A DNA stretch of 64,000 nt. Origin: Candidatus Heimdallarchaeota archaeon. Lineage in GTDB: Archaea; Asgardarchaeota; Heimdallarchaeia; JABLTI01. The translations under genes and the position numbers were made by a program. The notes beneath the pieces were generated by a model. That model was not told the origin of the DNA. It was given only the letters and a program-made list of their open reading frames with translations, and did not search any database. Shown here one piece after another: positions 20,728-34,179 of the stretch. The stretch's first letter is position 1. Every line of letters begins with the position of its first letter. Where the stretch lies: the NCBI GenBank assembly GCA_019058275.1, contig JAHLVW010000083.1, positions 35,570 to 99,569 of the forward strand, read 5' to 3'.

Positions 20728-21463
20728 TTAATCTTCTACAACTTTTGACAACTTTCTAGCGGTTTTAATATTATACACCAAATCACTTGGGTTTGGAACC
20801 ATTCCATCCCAATTTGATTCTTCAACGAATCTAATGAAGAATTCATGGAGTTCTTTAGGTTCAAATTCCGCAATTTTAGCGGGAGAATCTAGTCCAGCAT
20901 CATAGTAGAGTCGGGAGAGTTTCTTCTTAACATAACCAAGACGGGTTATATCAGAAAGCTTAACTAATTCTAAAATTGATTCTTCCGGGATAGCTAATTG
21001 CTTAGAAAGATCTTCACGTTGTTTCTTAGTTTTTCCCTTTTCCAACATTTGTTCAACGTTCTTGATTCCTATAGTTGCAAGTTTCTTTACTTGTTCTTGA
21101 TTGACTTTTAGAAATTCTTTAAGCGGAAAAATTCTCTTTGTCTTTTTGGTTCTTTCATCTCTTAAAGCTAGTGTGTTGAAGTAGTTCTTTATTGTCCAAG
21201 AAATGGAAATAATTCATTAAGATATACAAATAACCTTTTGCGGACTGTTTTTTACTTTCAAGTTCAAAAACAAAAGCATCTATATCGTCAGTCGTTACAG
21301 CTTCAAGATTTTTCTTTCTTTTCTCTTGCAAGTAGGACATGAAATCCTTTAGAACATTCACATTTCGATCTACTACATGTGGCTTTTTTCCTTCCCGTTT
21401 CAAGTATTTCCTAAAATCTTCTTCATTCATTAACTTCACAAGCAATACTATTTTATTTTTCAT
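20728..21463 (-). pseudogene. Frameshifted integrase-SAM-like + DUF4332-like (HhH) protein; paralog of 30986-31699
   Basis: ORFs 21155-21463 and 20728-21048 join by a frameshift at a CACAC tract near 21172. The alternative frame reads LALRDERTKKTKRIFPLKEFLKVNQEQVKKLATIGIKNVEQML and matches the intact paralog. Confidence 0.8.
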
Positions 21464-22439
21464 TAATTACTTCTTTGGGAAGATGAATAGCAAAAGTACA
21501 AATGTCATCTCCCTTTAAGACGGATTTAACAAGATCGACTTCTAAGGTTTGCTCGAAAATACCTTCAAAAGGCACTTTGTGCCATCCTCCAGAACAATTA
21601 CAAAAAGTATGTGAAACTTGTTTTTCTTCAGGTTTTTTCAATGAATCTCTAATCCAACCACAATGGCAATAATGATAGCGTTTGGTTTTATCATCTTTGG
21701 CTTCAACGAATTGTTTTATTTGATACGGGATTTTAGAAACATAAACGATATTCCCCTCTCGTACTCCCGCTTCGATAGATGGTTCAGCTTCAACATACTT
21801 ATACTCAGGAGAATTATACCCATATCTATCACCAATGATCTTTTTCCACTTAGCATGCATATGTTGTAAAACAACATCAATATTTCCTGCTTTTTCATAC
21901 ATTCTTTTCAATTTCTTGAAAGATGTAGACTTTGGACTTTTGAAGTGTAAATTATTAGTTAGAATTTTCTTGCAAGTTTTTTCATCAACATTTGCTTCTA
22001 AACAATCCATCATACACTTTGTCCAAGCAGCTTTCTTAACAGTTGATGAGGTTTGTTTAATGGGTCCACCTGCTGCGATGATTTTTTCTTGTAGCTCTTC
22101 ACCTACATATTCATCCAATGTTTCTTCGAATCGCGAAAGCCAAGTTCCTCTTCCTAATAATCGATTGGCATTAGCAATTAAATTATGATTCTCTGTGGCT
22201 TTTCCGTAGCTTTTCATTGCTAAAAGAAAGAGCTTTTTCTTTTTCTTGTCATCTTCCCATTGTTTGAGAAAAGCTTGTAAATCCTTCAAATATGATTTAT
22301 CTATCCCAAGAGATTTCTTTTCAATTTTGAGATAATCATCTATTTTTTTCACAAAAGTTACATATCTTTCTATTGTATTATCTTGCTTATTTTTCGATTT
22401 CATGAATTTTCTTAATTTCTCTTCTTGCATTAGTTTCAC
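21453..22439 (-). CDS. Integrase-SAM-like N-domain fused to a Cys-rich V4R-like (DUF6144-like) domain
   Basis: N-terminal LRKFMKSKNKQDNTIERYV; C-terminal HYCHCGW...FCNCSGG...SVLKGDDICTFAI. Confidence 0.75.
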   Translation of the reverse strand: MKLMQEEKLRKFMKSKNKQDNTIERYVTFVKKIDDYLKIEKKSLGIDKSYLKDLQAFLKQWEDDKKKKKLFLLAMKSYGKATENHNLIANANRLLGRGTWLSRFEETLDEYVGEELQEKIIAAGGPIKQTSSTVKKAAWTKCMMDCLEANVDEKTCKKILTNNLHFKSPKSTSFKKLKRMYEKAGNIDVVLQHMHAKWKKIIGDRYGYNSPEYKYVEAEPSIEAGVREGNIVYVSKIPYQIKQFVEAKDDKTKRYHYCHCGWIRDSLKKPEEKQVSHTFCNCSGGWHKVPFEGIFEQTLEVDLVKSVLKGDDICTFAIHLPKEVINEK

Positions 22440-22440
22440 C

Positions 22441-22944
22441 TTATTTTATGGGAATGAAAAAATCCATTTCTGATTCCTCATTATCCATGCCAAAAAAGCG
22501 CTTAGAATCATATGCTTGTATTTGGTATGAATATGATTCTTTATACTTAGATTTGGGCAACCATTCATGATAGATATAATTATTCGCTTCACGAAATTCT
22601 TTCCCTTTTGCAGAAAAAACAGCATATTTCGTTTTTGGTAGTATTTTACAAAACATTTCTAGAGGTATATTATGAAATCCTTTTACTTCAATACCGATAA
22701 ATACATACCATTTCTTCTCTTCCTTAGCAATTACAGGATCAATATGTACTTCATAAGTTTTTGAGGGGTTAATCAATATCTCTTTGAGTTGTTCTTTCTT
22801 TTCGTCAAGTAATTTAATAAATCGTACCCATAATCTACCAATCTCATTTTCAATGCTCCAACCCTTAATCGAATGAAATGGATCTCCGTAAAAAATGCTG
22901 CCAATTAGCTTTATTTCATCCTTATCAATGATTTTTTGCTTCAT
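22441..22944 (-). CDS. Stand-alone GyrI-like small-molecule-binding protein
   Basis: IGRLWVRF, LPKTKYAVF, YIYHEWLPKSKY, EMDFFIPIK. Confidence 0.88.
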   Translation of the reverse strand: MKQKIIDKDEIKLIGSIFYGDPFHSIKGWSIENEIGRLWVRFIKLLDEKKEQLKEILINPSKTYEVHIDPVIAKEEKKWYVFIGIEVKGFHNIPLEMFCKILPKTKYAVFSAKGKEFREANNYIYHEWLPKSKYKESYSYQIQAYDSKRFFGMDNEESEMDFFIPIK

Positions 22945-23008
22945 ACTTATCTAGACCTCATTAAAAAAAATTATCTTGATAATTTATAACAGTTTAAACA
23001 TCTTCCGC

Positions 23009-23470
23009 TTATAAGCCAAAACCATCATCTGGAAACCAATCTGGCCAACCTGAAATCCATTTTGGAATTTTAGCTTCTTTTACCCTGTCACATACAGGGA
23101 AATATGCCTTTAGGTCAAGTATTGGAGTCGTATCGAAAGCATCTATATTTTTAATCTTGATTAGTCCTTTTTCATGATTTATTTTGAGAATTTCCACTAT
23201 AGTCAAACCTATTGGATTTGGTCTGTATTCAGCCCTAGTAGCAAAAACACCGGTTACTGGAGGGTTTTCCCCATATGGAGGTGTACATTGGATACTTTTT
23301 TTGCTCTTAATATTATCATGTTTATCAGAACACCACAATACATGCATGTGACTAAAATGCTCTAGTTGTTGTAGAGCAGGTCTATATTCTTGAAAGAGTT
23401 CAAGATAGATGCCATCATCCTTTCTATTTACAAAACCTATTGGAGTTACTTTAAAATCTGTTTCAGTCAA
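23009..23470 (-). CDS. tsaA: TsaA/TrmO-family SAM-binding beta-barrel protein (single-domain form)
   Basis: PIGFV, LEHFSHMHVLW, GVFATRAEYRPNPIGLT, IDAFDTTPILDLKAY. Confidence 0.9.
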   Translation of the reverse strand: MTETDFKVTPIGFVNRKDDGIYLELFQEYRPALQQLEHFSHMHVLWCSDKHDNIKSKKSIQCTPPYGENPPVTGVFATRAEYRPNPIGLTIVEILKINHEKGLIKIKNIDAFDTTPILDLKAYFPVCDRVKEAKIPKWISGWPDWFPDDGFGL

Positions 23471-23638
23471 TTTAATTCCTCCAAAAAAGAGCTTCTTTCA
23501 AACATCTGTTTCTATTTAATATACATCGTATTTGGATATTTAAGAGTTTCTATTATCGGTGAATAATATTCATTAGAATTAGGTATTTATGTAATCTGAA
23601 CTGGAGAATATTTGCAATTAGTTGTAGAAAAATGAATG

Positions 23639-24025
23639 TTAGGTTTCTCTTCTTTGTAGAAAAGTATCTAGAAGATGCTTCTTCTGCTGTGCTTCTCGTT
23701 CTTTGATTTCGATTGATTGGGATTCAAGAAAAGCATCATTAATTGATTGTAAGAATTCAATACCCGTTTCGGTAATTCTATAATAACCATGATGGATTTT
23801 ATCAACCAGAGAAGCAGTTTTTAGAGAAGCAAGATGATTTGCTAAAGCTGTTCTACCGAGTTCAACTTCAGACATTAGTTCTTGGAATGTTTTTGTTCCC
23901 TCTAATAAGACTATTAGTATTTTCATTCTATTAGGAGAACCCAAAGCTTTCAAAACAAATATGAGATCATTGAAAGATCGCTGGAGGGATTCATATAATT
24001 CAGAATTGACATTATTATCTGACAT
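23639..24025 (-). CDS. ArsR-like winged-helix transcriptional regulator
   Basis: LKALGSPNRMKIL, LANHLASLKTASLV, YRITETG. Confidence 0.9.
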   Translation of the reverse strand: MSDNNVNSELYESLQRSFNDLIFVLKALGSPNRMKILIVLLEGTKTFQELMSEVELGRTALANHLASLKTASLVDKIHHGYYRITETGIEFLQSINDAFLESQSIEIKEREAQQKKHLLDTFLQRRET

Positions 24026-24096
24026 GATTCGGGTTAATTTGACCCTATTTTAATATAAATACTTAATCATGCAATGTTCATATATGAGATTAAGCA

Positions 24097-24903
24097 ATGA
24101 TTAAAGCGATTAAAATGAGTGTCCCCGATTACAAGATTATCAATATTACAGAGCAAAACTTAGATGAATATGATTTATTATGTCACAAATCCAAGAAAAG
24201 TGGAGAAGGATATCAAAATAAAGTCAAGTGGTTTATGGATCGATTAAAAGAAGGATTAAAATTAAAGCTCTTATTAATCGATGAGGGTACAAGAGGTTTT
24301 CGATCCAGGGGTTTTATTGAGTATATTCCAGGTGAATACACATGGCGTGGAATCGATGCTAAAGGATATATGGTCATTCATTGTATTTGGGTTATTGGTA
24401 AGAATAAGAAAATGGGTTTTGGTGTGAAATTACTAAATAAATGTTTAATTGATGCACAAGGAATGTATGGGGTAGTAGTTGTAACATCTAAAACTGGTTG
24501 GTTACCAAAAAGTAAATTTTTCATAAAAAATAGTTTTGAGAAAGTAGACGGTTTACCCCCGTCTTTTGATCTTTATGTAAAGAAATTTTCAGAGGTATTT
24601 CCCAATCCGGCATTCTATCCTATTTCTCGGAAAGAAGAATTTTCAGATGGTTTAGCAATTATGATTTCTCATCAATGCCCATATTCACCTTCAGCAAAAA
24701 ATGTAGTACAAAGAGTTGCAAAGAAACTAAACCTACCATTTAGAGTGATTGAAATTACTGATTGCAAACAAGCACAAAGAAATGGAATTCATCCATATGG
24801 AACATATTGTGTAGTATTAAATGGTGAAGCTTTGACTTATCGGGCTAGTAGTGAAAAAGATATATTGGAATTAATAAAAAAGAAAGAAGTTAAGATTGAG
24901 TAA
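24097..24903 (+). CDS. YoaP-type GNAT acetyltransferase with a C-terminal thioredoxin-like domain
   Basis: GFIEYIPGE, YMVIHCIWVIGKNKKMGFG, HQCPY, PYGTYCVVLNG. Confidence 0.85.
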   Translation: MIKAIKMSVPDYKIINITEQNLDEYDLLCHKSKKSGEGYQNKVKWFMDRLKEGLKLKLLLIDEGTRGFRSRGFIEYIPGEYTWRGIDAKGYMVIHCIWVIGKNKKMGFGVKLLNKCLIDAQGMYGVVVVTSKTGWLPKSKFFIKNSFEKVDGLPPSFDLYVKKFSEVFPNPAFYPISRKEEFSDGLAIMISHQCPYSPSAKNVVQRVAKKLNLPFRVIEITDCKQAQRNGIHPYGTYCVVLNGEALTYRASSEKDILELIKKKEVKIE

Positions 24904-24912
24904 AAGAGGGAA

Positions 24913-25446
24913 ATGCTTAATTCCTATTTAAACCTTCGATATATTGAGGAAGGTATAATGAATTCTGATAAGAAACACGTTTGGATTTCAAGCGGTTTAT
25001 TAGGCCAATTTTCAAGCAGTTGGAAGATGCTTCGAAGTGCTATTGATAATGCTCCTGACGAGTATTGGTATGGGAAGGAACATGATTGGAATTATTCACG
25101 AACGATTTACCATACAATTGAAACACAACTTTTCTACATAAGGAGTTCTCCTGAAGGCATGGAATGGGGTAAAATAATAAAAGAAATTAACACTGAAAAA
25201 AAACCCCCTAAAGAAGTCTACCCCTCAAAAGAGATTTTGATTGATTATTTGGGGAAGGTGAAAAAGCAGGTTACCACTTATCTCAAAGTAGTTAAGTTTG
25301 AAGAATTACTCGAGAAAGATGACTTCAAATGGTTTGGTTCTGTATTTGAAAAGCTACTTTATTTGTTAAGACATAATGCACATCACATTGGAGAATTAGC
25401 TAGAATGCTCCGAGAATGGGGATGTGATCGAGTAGAATGGACTTGA
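24913..25446 (+). CDS. DinB-family protein (likely start MNSDKK at 24958)
   Basis: IYHTIE and LRHNAHHIGEL metal-binding His pattern. Confidence 0.85.
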   Translation: MLNSYLNLRYIEEGIMNSDKKHVWISSGLLGQFSSSWKMLRSAIDNAPDEYWYGKEHDWNYSRTIYHTIETQLFYIRSSPEGMEWGKIIKEINTEKKPPKEVYPSKEILIDYLGKVKKQVTTYLKVVKFEELLEKDDFKWFGSVFEKLLYLLRHNAHHIGELARMLREWGCDRVEWT

Positions 25447-30985: not shown

Positions 30986-31699
30986 CTAGAATTCAATTAT
31001 TCTTAGAATTCTTTTTGAATTCTCAATAGATGATTTAGCATCTGCTAGTATTGGTGCACTGCCATCAAATCCAGTTTTCTTAATGAAATCATCCAGAAAT
31101 GCTATCATCTCTTCTGGATTTTGTGCAGCAATTTTATCAAAAGTATCTAAACCTACCTCAAAATACAAACAAGCTCTTTTTTTCATATGACCAGGACATC
31201 GAGCAAGATTAGCAATTTTAACGAATTTTAATATCTCTTCTATTGGAACTTTTGAACTCTCAGCTAATACTTCTCTTTCCTTCTTATTTCTTCCTACATC
31301 AAGTATTTGACTTGCAGTTTTTATTCCTATCTTTGCTAAGCTCTTTGCGTGTTCTTGGTTTACAGTCATAAAGTTTTTCAGTTTGAATTTTTCTAGTTGA
31401 ATCATTTGCATTATTTGATTACAAGCATATGATAATAGCTTATTTTCTAAGAAACGATAATACTCGCGAATACCAAATAATTCTAGATAAGCGTTTATTT
31501 TATTGCTCTTACTCCAATCAACGAAATCTTGAAGATCCTGAATTGTTAATTCTCCAATTGATTTTCTTATTTTGGTATCAAACAAATATTGTTCGAATCT
31601 CTTAACTCGATTAATATAGGAATTTATTGTGTCTGTAGGTTTTTTCTTCTCTTTCATATAATTAAAAAATCCTGTTTCATCCAATTCAATCACCCTCAC
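30986..31699 (-). CDS. Integrase-SAM-like N-domain + DUF4332-like helix-hairpin-helix protein
   Basis: N-terminal FFNYMKEKKKPTDTINSYINRVKRF...IREYYRFL; C-terminal LAKIGIKTASQIL, ANLARCPG, LYFEVGLDT. Confidence 0.78.
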   Translation of the reverse strand: MRVIELDETGFFNYMKEKKKPTDTINSYINRVKRFEQYLFDTKIRKSIGELTIQDLQDFVDWSKSNKINAYLELFGIREYYRFLENKLLSYACNQIMQMIQLEKFKLKNFMTVNQEHAKSLAKIGIKTASQILDVGRNKKEREVLAESSKVPIEEILKFVKIANLARCPGHMKKRACLYFEVGLDTFDKIAAQNPEEMIAFLDDFIKKTGFDGSAPILADAKSSIENSKRILRIIEF

Positions 31700-32730
31700 T
31701 ATTTTCTTTCTTCCGTTTTCTTGACAACTTCCTTAGGAAGATGTATAGCAAATAAGCATCTTGAATCACCATCCAATATGGTTTCAACAACATCAACATT
31801 AATTGGGTGATCAAGAATTACATCCCATTGGTTCTTATAGTATCCTGCACTGCACTTGCAGAATTTAGATGGAACCTGTATTTCTCCAGTTTTCAATGCT
31901 TCTCGCACCCAAGAGCAATGGCAATAATAGTATTGCTTCATTTTCTCATCAGTTTCTTCTAGGAATTGTTTAGTCATGTAAGGAATTTTCTCTGCGTAAA
32001 CAATGTTTCCCTTTCTCACTCCACGCTCTATTTGAGGATTGTTTTTTACATGATCAATAACTTGATCATCGATTTCTTGAGTATAGAATAGTGTTTTTTC
32101 ATCTCTATGCTTCTCTAATGTCTTAATGAAATCAGCATTTCTTTCCTTTAGGTATTCATCAACATTTTCCGTTTTCAGAAATTTCTCTCTTTGTCTTTTG
32201 TAGCTTTCCTTCGGAATACCATGAAGATTGCTGACAAGAATTTTATGACAAGTTTTCTCATCAAGATTTTCTTCTAAACGTTCCATAACTTTCTTTGTTA
32301 TTACAGGTTTTTTATCAGAAGTCGTTCCTAAAACAGGAAAATCTATACCGGCTAGAATTTGTTTTCCTTTCTCTTCACCCACAGCTTCAAACAATTCTCT
32401 CGATAAATTAACTAGAACATCACTACCATCTAATAGTTCGTATAATGCAATAAGCATATCATTGTTTCCAGAGAAATAACAGTATCTAATCAATGCGTAA
32501 AGATTCTCTTTCTTATTTTTTCCAGTTGCTATCAATTCTTGAGCGAAGTTATGAACATCTTCTTCTTTTGCTGAGTCAATATTTCGTTTAGCTTCTAGTA
32601 AAAAGTCATCGAATTCTTTTACAACCTCTATCGCTTTTTCTACTATCTCTTCACTATATTCTCTTTTTTCACAAAATTTCTTGAATCCTTCAATGTCCAT
32701 TATTATACCTTCTTTTTTTGGTAGCTTCAA
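31699..32730 (-). CDS. Integrase-SAM-like N-domain + V4R-like (DUF6144-like) Cys-rich domain (likely start ATG 32700)
   Basis: MDIEGFKKF...; YYCHCSW...FCKCSAG...TILDGDSRCLFAIHLP; paralog of 21453-22439. Confidence 0.78.
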   Translation of the reverse strand: MKLPKKEGIIMDIEGFKKFCEKREYSEEIVEKAIEVVKEFDDFLLEAKRNIDSAKEEDVHNFAQELIATGKNKKENLYALIRYCYFSGNNDMLIALYELLDGSDVLVNLSRELFEAVGEEKGKQILAGIDFPVLGTTSDKKPVITKKVMERLEENLDEKTCHKILVSNLHGIPKESYKRQREKFLKTENVDEYLKERNADFIKTLEKHRDEKTLFYTQEIDDQVIDHVKNNPQIERGVRKGNIVYAEKIPYMTKQFLEETDEKMKQYYYCHCSWVREALKTGEIQVPSKFCKCSAGYYKNQWDVILDHPINVDVVETILDGDSRCLFAIHLPKEVVKKTEERK

Positions 32731-32756: not shown

Positions 32757-32776
32757 TTTCTCATCAAATTGAGAAA
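32757..32776. promoter_or_regulatory. Inverted repeat, possible operator in a divergent promoter
   Basis: TTTCTCA-N6-TGAGAAA between the divergent genes starting at 32730 and 32908. Confidence 0.3.
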
Positions 32777-32907: not shown

Positions 32908-34179
32908 GTGCAGAAGATGAAAATAGAAGAAAAGCTTGTTAAAACACTTATTCGACAGGGTGGTCCATCAGTATTTTCTTGGTCTGAAATCTACTTGAAT
33001 CCATACCAAGGCTGCTATCACAACTGTGTTTATTGTGACGGAAAAAGTGAACATTATCATATGCATGATGATTTTGGTGATAGAATTTTTGTTAAGAAAA
33101 ATGCTCCTGCTCTTTTCGAGAAGTTTCTGAAAAACAAGAGTTTTCAGCCAGTTCATGAGAAAGAACAATCTGCGATCGATGAATTCTTTCCGTCCTTAAA
33201 GGCAATTCCTAATTCTAAGGTTTTACCTAAATCAATTATTACTATTGGTGGTGGTGTCTGTGATTCCTATCAGCAAGCTGAAGAAACGGTCAAAATAACT
33301 AGAAAGTTACTCGAGATCGTTTATAATTACCAATTTCCTCTTTGGATTCTCACTAAAAATGATCTTGTTCTAAGAGATATTGATTTGATCAAGAAAATCA
33401 ACAAAGAAACATATGCTTGTGTTAATTTTACTATAACGCTAAGTGATGAGAAAGCTCAAAAGATCTTTGAACCTCGAGCAAGCACAACTTCTGAGCGTTT
33501 TGAAGCAATCCGAATTCTTCGTAAGGAGGAAATTCATTCTGGGGTATATTGTTATCCATCTTTACCGTTCATCGGTAATACCGATAAGAATATCCAGGAA
33601 ATTTATCAACGTGCAAAAAGGGTTGGTGCGGAATTTATCTATTGTGATGGATTAACCTTGAAACCTGGTCGTAGTAAGAATGAATTCATGCAAACATTGA
33701 GACAATATTATCCGGACCTCTATCCAAAATACGAGCTACTTTATAGTAATAACAACAAATATGGTCATTTGGATCAAGAACAATTTGAAGATCTTGGGCT
33801 TATGCGGTCATTGCATAGAGGTTACAAATTTGGATATGAAATGGAATTAGATTATGCTGCAAAACGATTTGTACCTGAAGGAAGATTGACTGTCAATCTT
33901 CAACTATCAGAATTATTACGTAGAATTGTTTATCTAAAAGGTAGCATATTGTATGAAGCAAGATATGAAGTTAATGCATTTAACAATGCTGCCAAATTGG
34001 TTGAGAATTCAGGTAGGGACTTTGGGAAACTTAGAGGGGATGAATTTGCGGATATCCCAACCAATATACAAGTCAAAGATGTGATTAAGGAGTTCGTTTT
34101 GACTGGAAAATCTGCTTATCTTAAGGATTTGGAGAAACGTACTTATGATTACTTAGTTGATAAATATTATACGGAATAG
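32908..34179 (+). CDS. Radical SAM protein of the SPL-like/Rv2578c-type group, with a PIP-box match and a PolX-like C-terminal helical domain
   Basis: LNPYQGCYHNCVYC, ILTKNDLVLRDID, FEPRAST; QSAIDEFF; C-terminal AFNNAAKLVE...IKEFVLTGKS. Confidence 0.85.
   Translation: MQKMKIEEKLVKTLIRQGGPSVFSWSEIYLNPYQGCYHNCVYCDGKSEHYHMHDDFGDRIFVKKNAPALFEKFLKNKSFQPVHEKEQSAIDEFFPSLKAIPNSKVLPKSIITIGGGVCDSYQQAEETVKITRKLLEIVYNYQFPLWILTKNDLVLRDIDLIKKINKETYACVNFTITLSDEKAQKIFEPRASTTSERFEAIRILRKEEIHSGVYCYPSLPFIGNTDKNIQEIYQRAKRVGAEFIYCDGLTLKPGRSKNEFMQTLRQYYPDLYPKYELLYSNNNKYGHLDQEQFEDLGLMRSLHRGYKFGYEMELDYAAKRFVPEGRLTVNLQLSELLRRIVYLKGSILYEARYEVNAFNNAAKLVENSGRDFGKLRGDEFADIPTNIQVKDVIKEFVLTGKSAYLKDLEKRTYDYLVDKYYTE

Follow-up and report, generated by a model that had tools for sequence, protein, structure and literature searches.

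DNA repair chemistry has been proven for spore photoproduct (SP) lyase, a radical SAM enzyme. The SPL-like enzymes of COG1533 are widespread, have been placed in LUCA and occur in taxa without spores or UV exposure, with no known substrate in spore-free organisms (PMC11383801). Genes of this group are SOS-regulated in several bacteria (PMC8565304), and their function outside spores is unexplained (PMC8565304, PMC3765255, PMC11383801). Two of the SPL-like families, PA0069 and Rv2578c (NF033668 and NF038135; COG1533 'DNA repair photolyase'), consist of uncharacterised enzymes, some of them SOS-regulated. A literature search found no clamp link for SPL.

The exchange of clamp-binding motifs between archaea and bacteria has been described for NucS/EndoMS and for the IS1634 transposases, in which the archaeal members of a family have a PIP box and the bacterial members a beta-clamp motif (PMC6159515, PMC4549789); for NucS it is the same exchange as that reported below (PMC6159515). 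The published beta-clamp consensus is QLxLF (PMC4549789), and archaeal PolD has PIP boxes that lack the Q and PIP boxes that are internal (10.1101/2020.01.29.925263). The 8-kDa helical domain of family X polymerases (HHH_8, PF14716; PDB 3AU2, pol beta) is found at the N-terminus of PolX.

Here we describe a gene of a Candidatus Heimdallarchaeota archaeon, located in a 64,000-nucleotide stretch of DNA (the window), whose product joins an SPL-like radical SAM barrel to a putative clamp-binding loop and to a C-terminal PolX-type 8-kDa domain. A literature search, which was incomplete for subscription papers, found no SPL-like enzyme with a clamp motif or a PolX domain. The protein is fairly likely to be a sliding-clamp-tethered radical SAM DNA repair enzyme acting by direct reversal. 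Such a reading would give the ill-defined 'photolyase' label a content that can be tested, in a family that is common among genomes of the Asgard archaea, the lineage closest to eukaryotes.

The gene and its distribution

The gene maps to window positions 32908..34179 on the forward strand and encodes 423 amino acids when read from its GTG codon. The database copies are 420 amino acids long and Met4 is invariant, so the ATG at 32917 may be the real start. In Pfam searches the query matched Radical_SAM (PF04055) above the cut-off (35.9 bits against 29.5), which, together with SP lyase as the top fold match (see below), bears out the original prediction of an open reading frame with a CYHNCVYC motif and an SPL-like radical SAM core. 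The best sequence families in NCBIfam were PA0069 (156 bits) and Rv2578c (124 bits), but the query lies far under their cut-offs of 360 and 430 bits and is a member of neither. It also differs from both in its internal loop and C-terminal PolX domain, whereas short relatives carry a clamp-type motif at the C-terminus instead of in a loop.

The nearest relatives are Candidatus Heimdallarchaeota records, with a top identity of 93%. A tight family of proteins of ~400-440 amino acids was found in Heimdallarchaeia, other Asgard groups, Theionarchaea and a few bacteria, and with all subfamilies counted, 321 of the 400 Asgard genomes searched have the family at an E-value of 1e-20. An ESM Atlas cluster, mostly bacterial, combines Radical_SAM with HHH_8, indicating that this architecture is present in databases under no name. 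The ortholog in the named bacterial isolate Gorillibacterium sp. CAU 1737 could allow genetics.

One record (L010) is titled Bathyarchaeia, and its coordinates are those of a genome (G090) that shares its genus with the window; NCBI has probably mislabelled the record. At eight loci, forming a clade of Thermoplasmata and Methanobacteriota, the loop is kept as TGTLxD plus one hydrophobic residue, the box is weaker and the protein stops ahead of the PolX domain.

Radical SAM barrel and C-terminal domain

The AlphaFold model of the full protein has a mean pLDDT of 90.6 and comprises three parts. The first, residues 1-318, is an SPL-type barrel, for which SP lyase (4fhc_A) was the top of 48,161 chains in a fold comparison (Z 18.5, rmsd 4.0 Å, 266 aligned residues). 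Foldseek returned a match for the barrel only, and whole-protein and profile sequence searches of the PDB gave nothing useful. The barrel shares with SplB (PDB 4FHC; PF20903; TIGR04070) the partial TIM barrel radical SAM fold, the CxxxCxxC motif and a similar order of motifs around the cluster; unlike SplB, with which identity is 16%, the query is without SPL's N-terminal part, and its clamp loop and PolX 8-kDa domain are missing from SPL. The [4Fe-4S]/SAM motif CYHNCVYC occupies residues 36-43 (33013..33036, forward strand), with C36, C40 and C43 invariant in 73 homologs. A GGGVCDxYQ motif is located at residues 114-122 (33247..33273, forward strand), and its C118, present in 72 of the 73 homologs, may be the hydrogen-atom donor.

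Residues 328-412 (33889..34143, forward strand) correspond to the 8-kDa helical domain of PolX and pol beta. In the full model they match the N-terminal 8-kDa domain of T. thermophilus PolX with Z 13.0 and an rmsd of 1.7 Å over 84 residues, and further fold matches were D. radiodurans PolX, pol beta, lambda, mu and TdT, the same helical fold being recovered at 1.7-2.2 Å over ~80 residues. A single-sequence fold of this region was poor (pLDDT 55) and was set aside, so the fold match is that of the full model. Homology was also seen at the profile level, where a profile of 30 family members reached T. thermophilus PolX with an E-value of 4.5e-14 and pol beta with ~1e-12. HHH_8 was matched by 20 of these 30 members, whereas the query alone was below the Pfam threshold and gave a faint match to PolX PRK08609 (E 0.0085, residues 349-414). 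PDB sequences were used for the PolX comparison because a PolX search among the relatives of Gorillibacterium found none. The domain is a real 8-kDa domain, although it is C-terminal here, N-terminal in PolX, and belongs to a protein without a polymerase.

The GVG hairpin is kept by distant members of the family and lost in the clade of the query, where it is shortened to a P-x-x turn. Column 392, the position of the dRP-lyase Lys as placed by the PolX alignment, is Tyr, Ile or Val in most of the 73 homologs; in pol beta the nucleophile is K72. A dRP-lyase activity of the domain was considered and rejected, since the Lys is absent. With the hairpin lost and the lyase-Lys position hydrophobic, the domain is probably a non-catalytic DNA-contact module. 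The original prediction of a PolX-like C-terminus thus agrees with the fold and the profile match, but the helix-hairpin-helix element and the lyase residue are degenerate in this clade and the domain is probably no lyase.

The loop and its PIP box in archaea

An inserted loop of residues 76-109 (33133..33234, forward strand), absent from loop-less relatives and ~25-28 residues longer than their equivalent, carries the putative PIP box QSAIDEFF at residues 87-94 (33166..33189, forward strand). As first noticed from the sequence, the box lies inside the insertion and is an exact match to the consensus Qxx[ILM]xxFF; it also fits the consensus in the form Qxx[ILM]xx[FY][FYW]. No 30-residue stretch of the model has a lower confidence than residues 81-110 (pLDDT 56-65), and the loop is probably flexible, judging from this and from its being dispensable in relatives. 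A motif buried in the fold would have spoken against the original prediction; the low-confidence loop would fit an accessible motif, although residues 85-93 are modelled as a helix.

The strict pattern Qxx[ILM]xxFF has 31 matches in the host proteome against 13-26 in shuffled versions (about 20 by chance), and a protein of the query's length would match by chance in ~0.7% of cases, so the match of QSAIDEFF is not decisive on its own and conservation is. In a taxon-labelled set, a PIP-type hydrophobic core was found in 44 of 55 archaeal loops, with 5.5 expected from shuffled loops, and conservation of the archaeal box is highest at positions 3, 4, 7 and 8. Of these 44 loops, 40 have T or S at position 3, which lies outside the search pattern. 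Other proteins of the host show the same preference in PIP-like tails, and tails of this type end several of them, including FEN1, PolB and PolD as recognised by eye. The usual archaeal form of the family is T-S-T-L-x-D-[FY]-[FLI]; the PIP-type core is what the archaeal orthologs conserve. The strict Q form belongs to a single subclade, being found in 27 of 121 near homologs, 26 of which are among the closest hits, and in 6 of 55 sampled archaeal rows.

The readout of a complex model of host PCNA and the full protein was a score, with no interface: 0.58, against 0.00 for the best control, with at least 96% of contacts agreeing among the runs and a partner pLDDT of at least 89. The mark set for such models was reached by 58 of 80 solved pairs and 2 of 110 mismatched pairs, but passes at 0.60 or under comprised only 7 of the 80 solved pairs and both mismatches, and PIP-PCNA pairs may pass on account of likeness. 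The model favours the predicted binding to PCNA, but as a weak pass it lends weak support and shifts the odds little.

The host genome is ~93% complete and has two PCNA genes, the first at L001:1489-2235. The second (L002:1417-2223) shows 53-54% identity to the first, is surrounded by ORFs that do not look like housekeeping genes, and may belong to a mobile element.

Exchange of the motif in bacterial orthologs

The bacterial orthologs have a shorter loop at the same site, with motifs such as QGSLF (two Bacillota MAGs), QLSLF (Clostridiales), QLDWF (Gorillibacterium), QKDLF, QLELF and similar ones. The PIP core was found in none of 22 bacterial rows, whereas a beta-clamp-type motif was found in 14 of the 22 (0.6 expected) and in 1 of 55 archaeal rows, a count made with a looser pattern that was set after the data had been seen and across related rows that are not independent; the strict QxxLF form was found in 9 of the 22. 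A recognisable motif was missing in the other 8 bacterial rows. The bacterial labels were assigned by record name (7 rows), by contig context (8) and by tree only (7). Comparison of archaeal with bacterial orthologs, which had been proposed as a check on the motif, thus gave a PIP-type box in archaea that is replaced by a QxxLF/QLxLF-type motif in most bacterial orthologs.

In trees built without the loop, the bacterial rows were nested among the archaeal ones, in a main clade (support 100/98) and a second small clade. A single bacterial clade was not rejected by the AU test (p 0.073), and therefore two independent switches are not claimed. Clamp-type motifs of the same classes were also found away from the loop: loop-less Asgard relatives have TLDRFL-type C-terminal tails, many loop-less Bacillota relatives have QLSLF-type ones, and the loop-less SPL-like paralog of the host ends QSKLDSWF, with PIP-like tails throughout the genus. 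A crude tally that set loop presence against C-terminal motifs suffered from false hits to a helical tail ending YY and was not used as a statistic.

The motif switch adds strong comparative evidence, at the level of sequence, for recruitment to the clamp. It parallels the exchange in NucS/EndoMS and the IS1634 transposases, although those enzymes are unrelated to the query and their motifs are C-terminal, whereas that of the query is in an internal loop. The swap of the clamp motif between hosts and its shift between loop and C-terminus are evidence, of the kind that a natural experiment gives, for an action of these proteins on clamp-loaded DNA.

The host paralog (L004:2202-2200, reverse strand; G000:C1 ~53060) has an in-frame TAG just before its cluster motif, at a site that is Trp in same-genus orthologs, which could reflect a pseudogene or a sequence error. 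No tRNA with a CUA anticodon was found by ARAGORN in the host tRNA set, which is incomplete.

Proposed mode of action

The protein in all probability acts on DNA and is very likely to bind the clamp; repair by direct reversal is somewhat favoured. Recruitment to the clamp, the first half of what had been predicted, is supported by a motif that is conserved in archaea and swapped in bacteria, whereas the action on a DNA lesion we infer. The internal PIP loop would dock on PCNA and deliver the enzyme to clamp-loaded DNA at forks, gaps and nicks, and the PolX-type 8-kDa domain would supply a non-catalytic DNA contact. A flipped-out damaged nucleotide would be taken into the SPL-like barrel, SAM would be reductively cleaved at the CxxxCxxC cluster, and the 5'-deoxyadenosyl radical would abstract a hydrogen, leading to breakage of the cross-link or adduct bond and restoration of the base; Cys118 may give the hydrogen back. 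This barrel chemistry is modelled on the SPL mechanism (PMC3467042): the query would work like SPL, yet it falls outside the SPL family. The lesion is more likely to be a chemically or radical-made adduct or cross-link than the spore photoproduct.

A broader proposal, which we consider tentative and rather doubtful, is that SPL-like (COG1533) enzymes are generally sliding-clamp clients and make up an undescribed direct-reversal pathway that would be replication-coupled and oxygen-independent and would deal with a non-UV lesion. On this view, bacteria acquired the present subfamily to protect their own DNA next to clusters for DNA-damaging natural products.

Alternative explanations

The main rival is a clamp-coupled DNA-modifying enzyme, which would modify the bases or the backbone of freshly replicated DNA and not remove damage; we consider it improbable. 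Clamp docking and the 8-kDa domain would fit such an enzyme equally well, and the catalytic residues of SPL are not kept. Archaeal neighbourhoods, in which most neighbour clusters are unannotated, differ by lineage, with no fixed donor or repair partner identified. However, among solved folds a lyase comes closest, SOS regulation is known in the wider family and conserved partner genes of a modification pathway were not seen. The bacterial copies also point towards repair, with four loci, three of them related, at which the gene lies at most three genes from uvrB or uvrBA.

Less probable again is a true spore photoproduct lyase in non-sporulating archaea, repairing the thymine dimer of dry or A-form DNA. 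SPL is the top fold match, and 14 of the 73 homologs match Pfam SPL weakly (best E 0.0012). In a by-eye alignment anchored on a conserved Asp, over a stretch that hhalign misplaces, Cys140 of SPL appears to fall on Gly116, and the conserved Cys118, two residues on, could stand in for it; the SPL donor cysteine shifts position in Clostridia (PMC3467042). The query itself, however, has no match to Pfam SPL (PF20903) and TIGR04070 is absent from its NCBIfam matches, while the SPL family profile had no match in the whole genome at an E-value of 0.01. With identity as low as that given above, hhalign against true SPL reached a probability of only 38%, in an alignment that goes wrong at the loop. 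In addition, Tyr98 of SPL, which comes right after the third cluster Cys, corresponds to Asp44 in the query, with Asp in at least 90% of homologs, and Gorillibacterium has both a true SPL and the present gene in one bacterium. The Asp at the Tyr98 position, the absent SPL-family match and the presence of both genes in one bacterium, on top of the occurrence of COG1533 in taxa without spores or UV exposure, suggest that the lesion is probably not the spore photoproduct.

A slightly weaker candidate still is a structural surface insertion, in which the hydrophobic residues of the loop would be packed on the barrel, the PIP match would be a coincidence and the enzyme would be clamp-independent. 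About two thirds of the strict PIP matches in the proteome are expected by chance, the loop is partly helical in the model (residues 85-93) and the Q is not conserved family-wide. Nevertheless, such an insertion would leave unexplained the bacterial switch to QxxLF/QLxLF motifs, the T or S at position 3 and the low pLDDT, and would not account for loop-less relatives having these motif classes in their C-terminal tails.

An enzyme that tailors small molecules in natural-product pathways is very unlikely: at four bacterial loci (L139, L144, L178 and L179) the gene has NRPS/PKS, amidase, GyrI-like, MATE or peptidase-ABC genes as neighbours, but such a context was not recognised around archaeal copies, a clamp motif and a PolX domain would be useless for tailoring, and DNA self-protection is the simpler explanation because uvrB is in the same clusters.

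These bacterial clusters resemble the self-protection set of a DNA-damaging natural product. Orthologs in or beside NRPS/PKS clusters were seen at the same four loci and at L177, also with a WbuX-like amidotransferase gene and often with uvrB. In the window, 8-10 kb upstream of the gene (22441-25446), there are ORFs that by eye are like GyrI-like, YoaP-like and DinB-like proteins, and genes of the GyrI-like and YoaP kinds are also found on the flanks of several bacterial orthologs.

Divergent neighbours and the spacer palindrome

Next to the gene, on the reverse strand (30986..32730), are a DUF6144 gene (31699-32730) and a DUF4332/integrase-SAM-like gene (30986-31699), which had been termed the A/B module. 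The spacer contains the inverted repeat TTTCTCA-N6-TGAGAAA (32757..32776), 27 bp from the DUF6144 ORF and ~130 bp from the radical SAM ORF, in agreement with the divergent arrangement across a palindrome-bearing spacer that was first described.

The suggested joint regulation with this module did not hold. The two genes are adjacent to the radical SAM gene only within the genus, where the DUF6144 gene is divergent at four loci (L007-L010) and co-directional at two (L012-L013); it lies a few genes upstream at two others (L015 and L019) and is absent from the remaining loci. The DUF4332 gene accompanies it at L008-L009 only. Of 83 genomes of the class, 53 have the DUF6144 family, in most cases away from the radical SAM gene. 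The palindrome is kept in three close relatives, in which most of the spacer is likewise kept. Shared regulation with the module is thus unsupported, since the linkage is genus-limited, palindrome and spacer are kept alike, and the palindrome adjoins the DUF6144 gene. Co-regulation as a conserved feature was rejected on the divergent pairing being limited to the genus and on the two co-directional loci within it. From its position, the palindrome is more likely to be an operator of the DUF6144 gene than a link to the radical SAM gene, and gene order indicates that the A/B genes are not part of the radical SAM system.

A DUF6144 paralog with a faint integrase SAM-like N-terminus was found in the window at 21453-22439, 9 kb from the first copy. 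Allowing at most one mismatch, TTTCTCA-N6-TGAGAAA, a possible regulator site, occurs at eight sites in the host genome (G000), including that in the window, against two for the reversed control. Six of the eight sites are outside called ORFs and two flank an HTH-like gene (C55); one site is ~400 bp ahead of an ORF that by eye is UvrA-like (C34).
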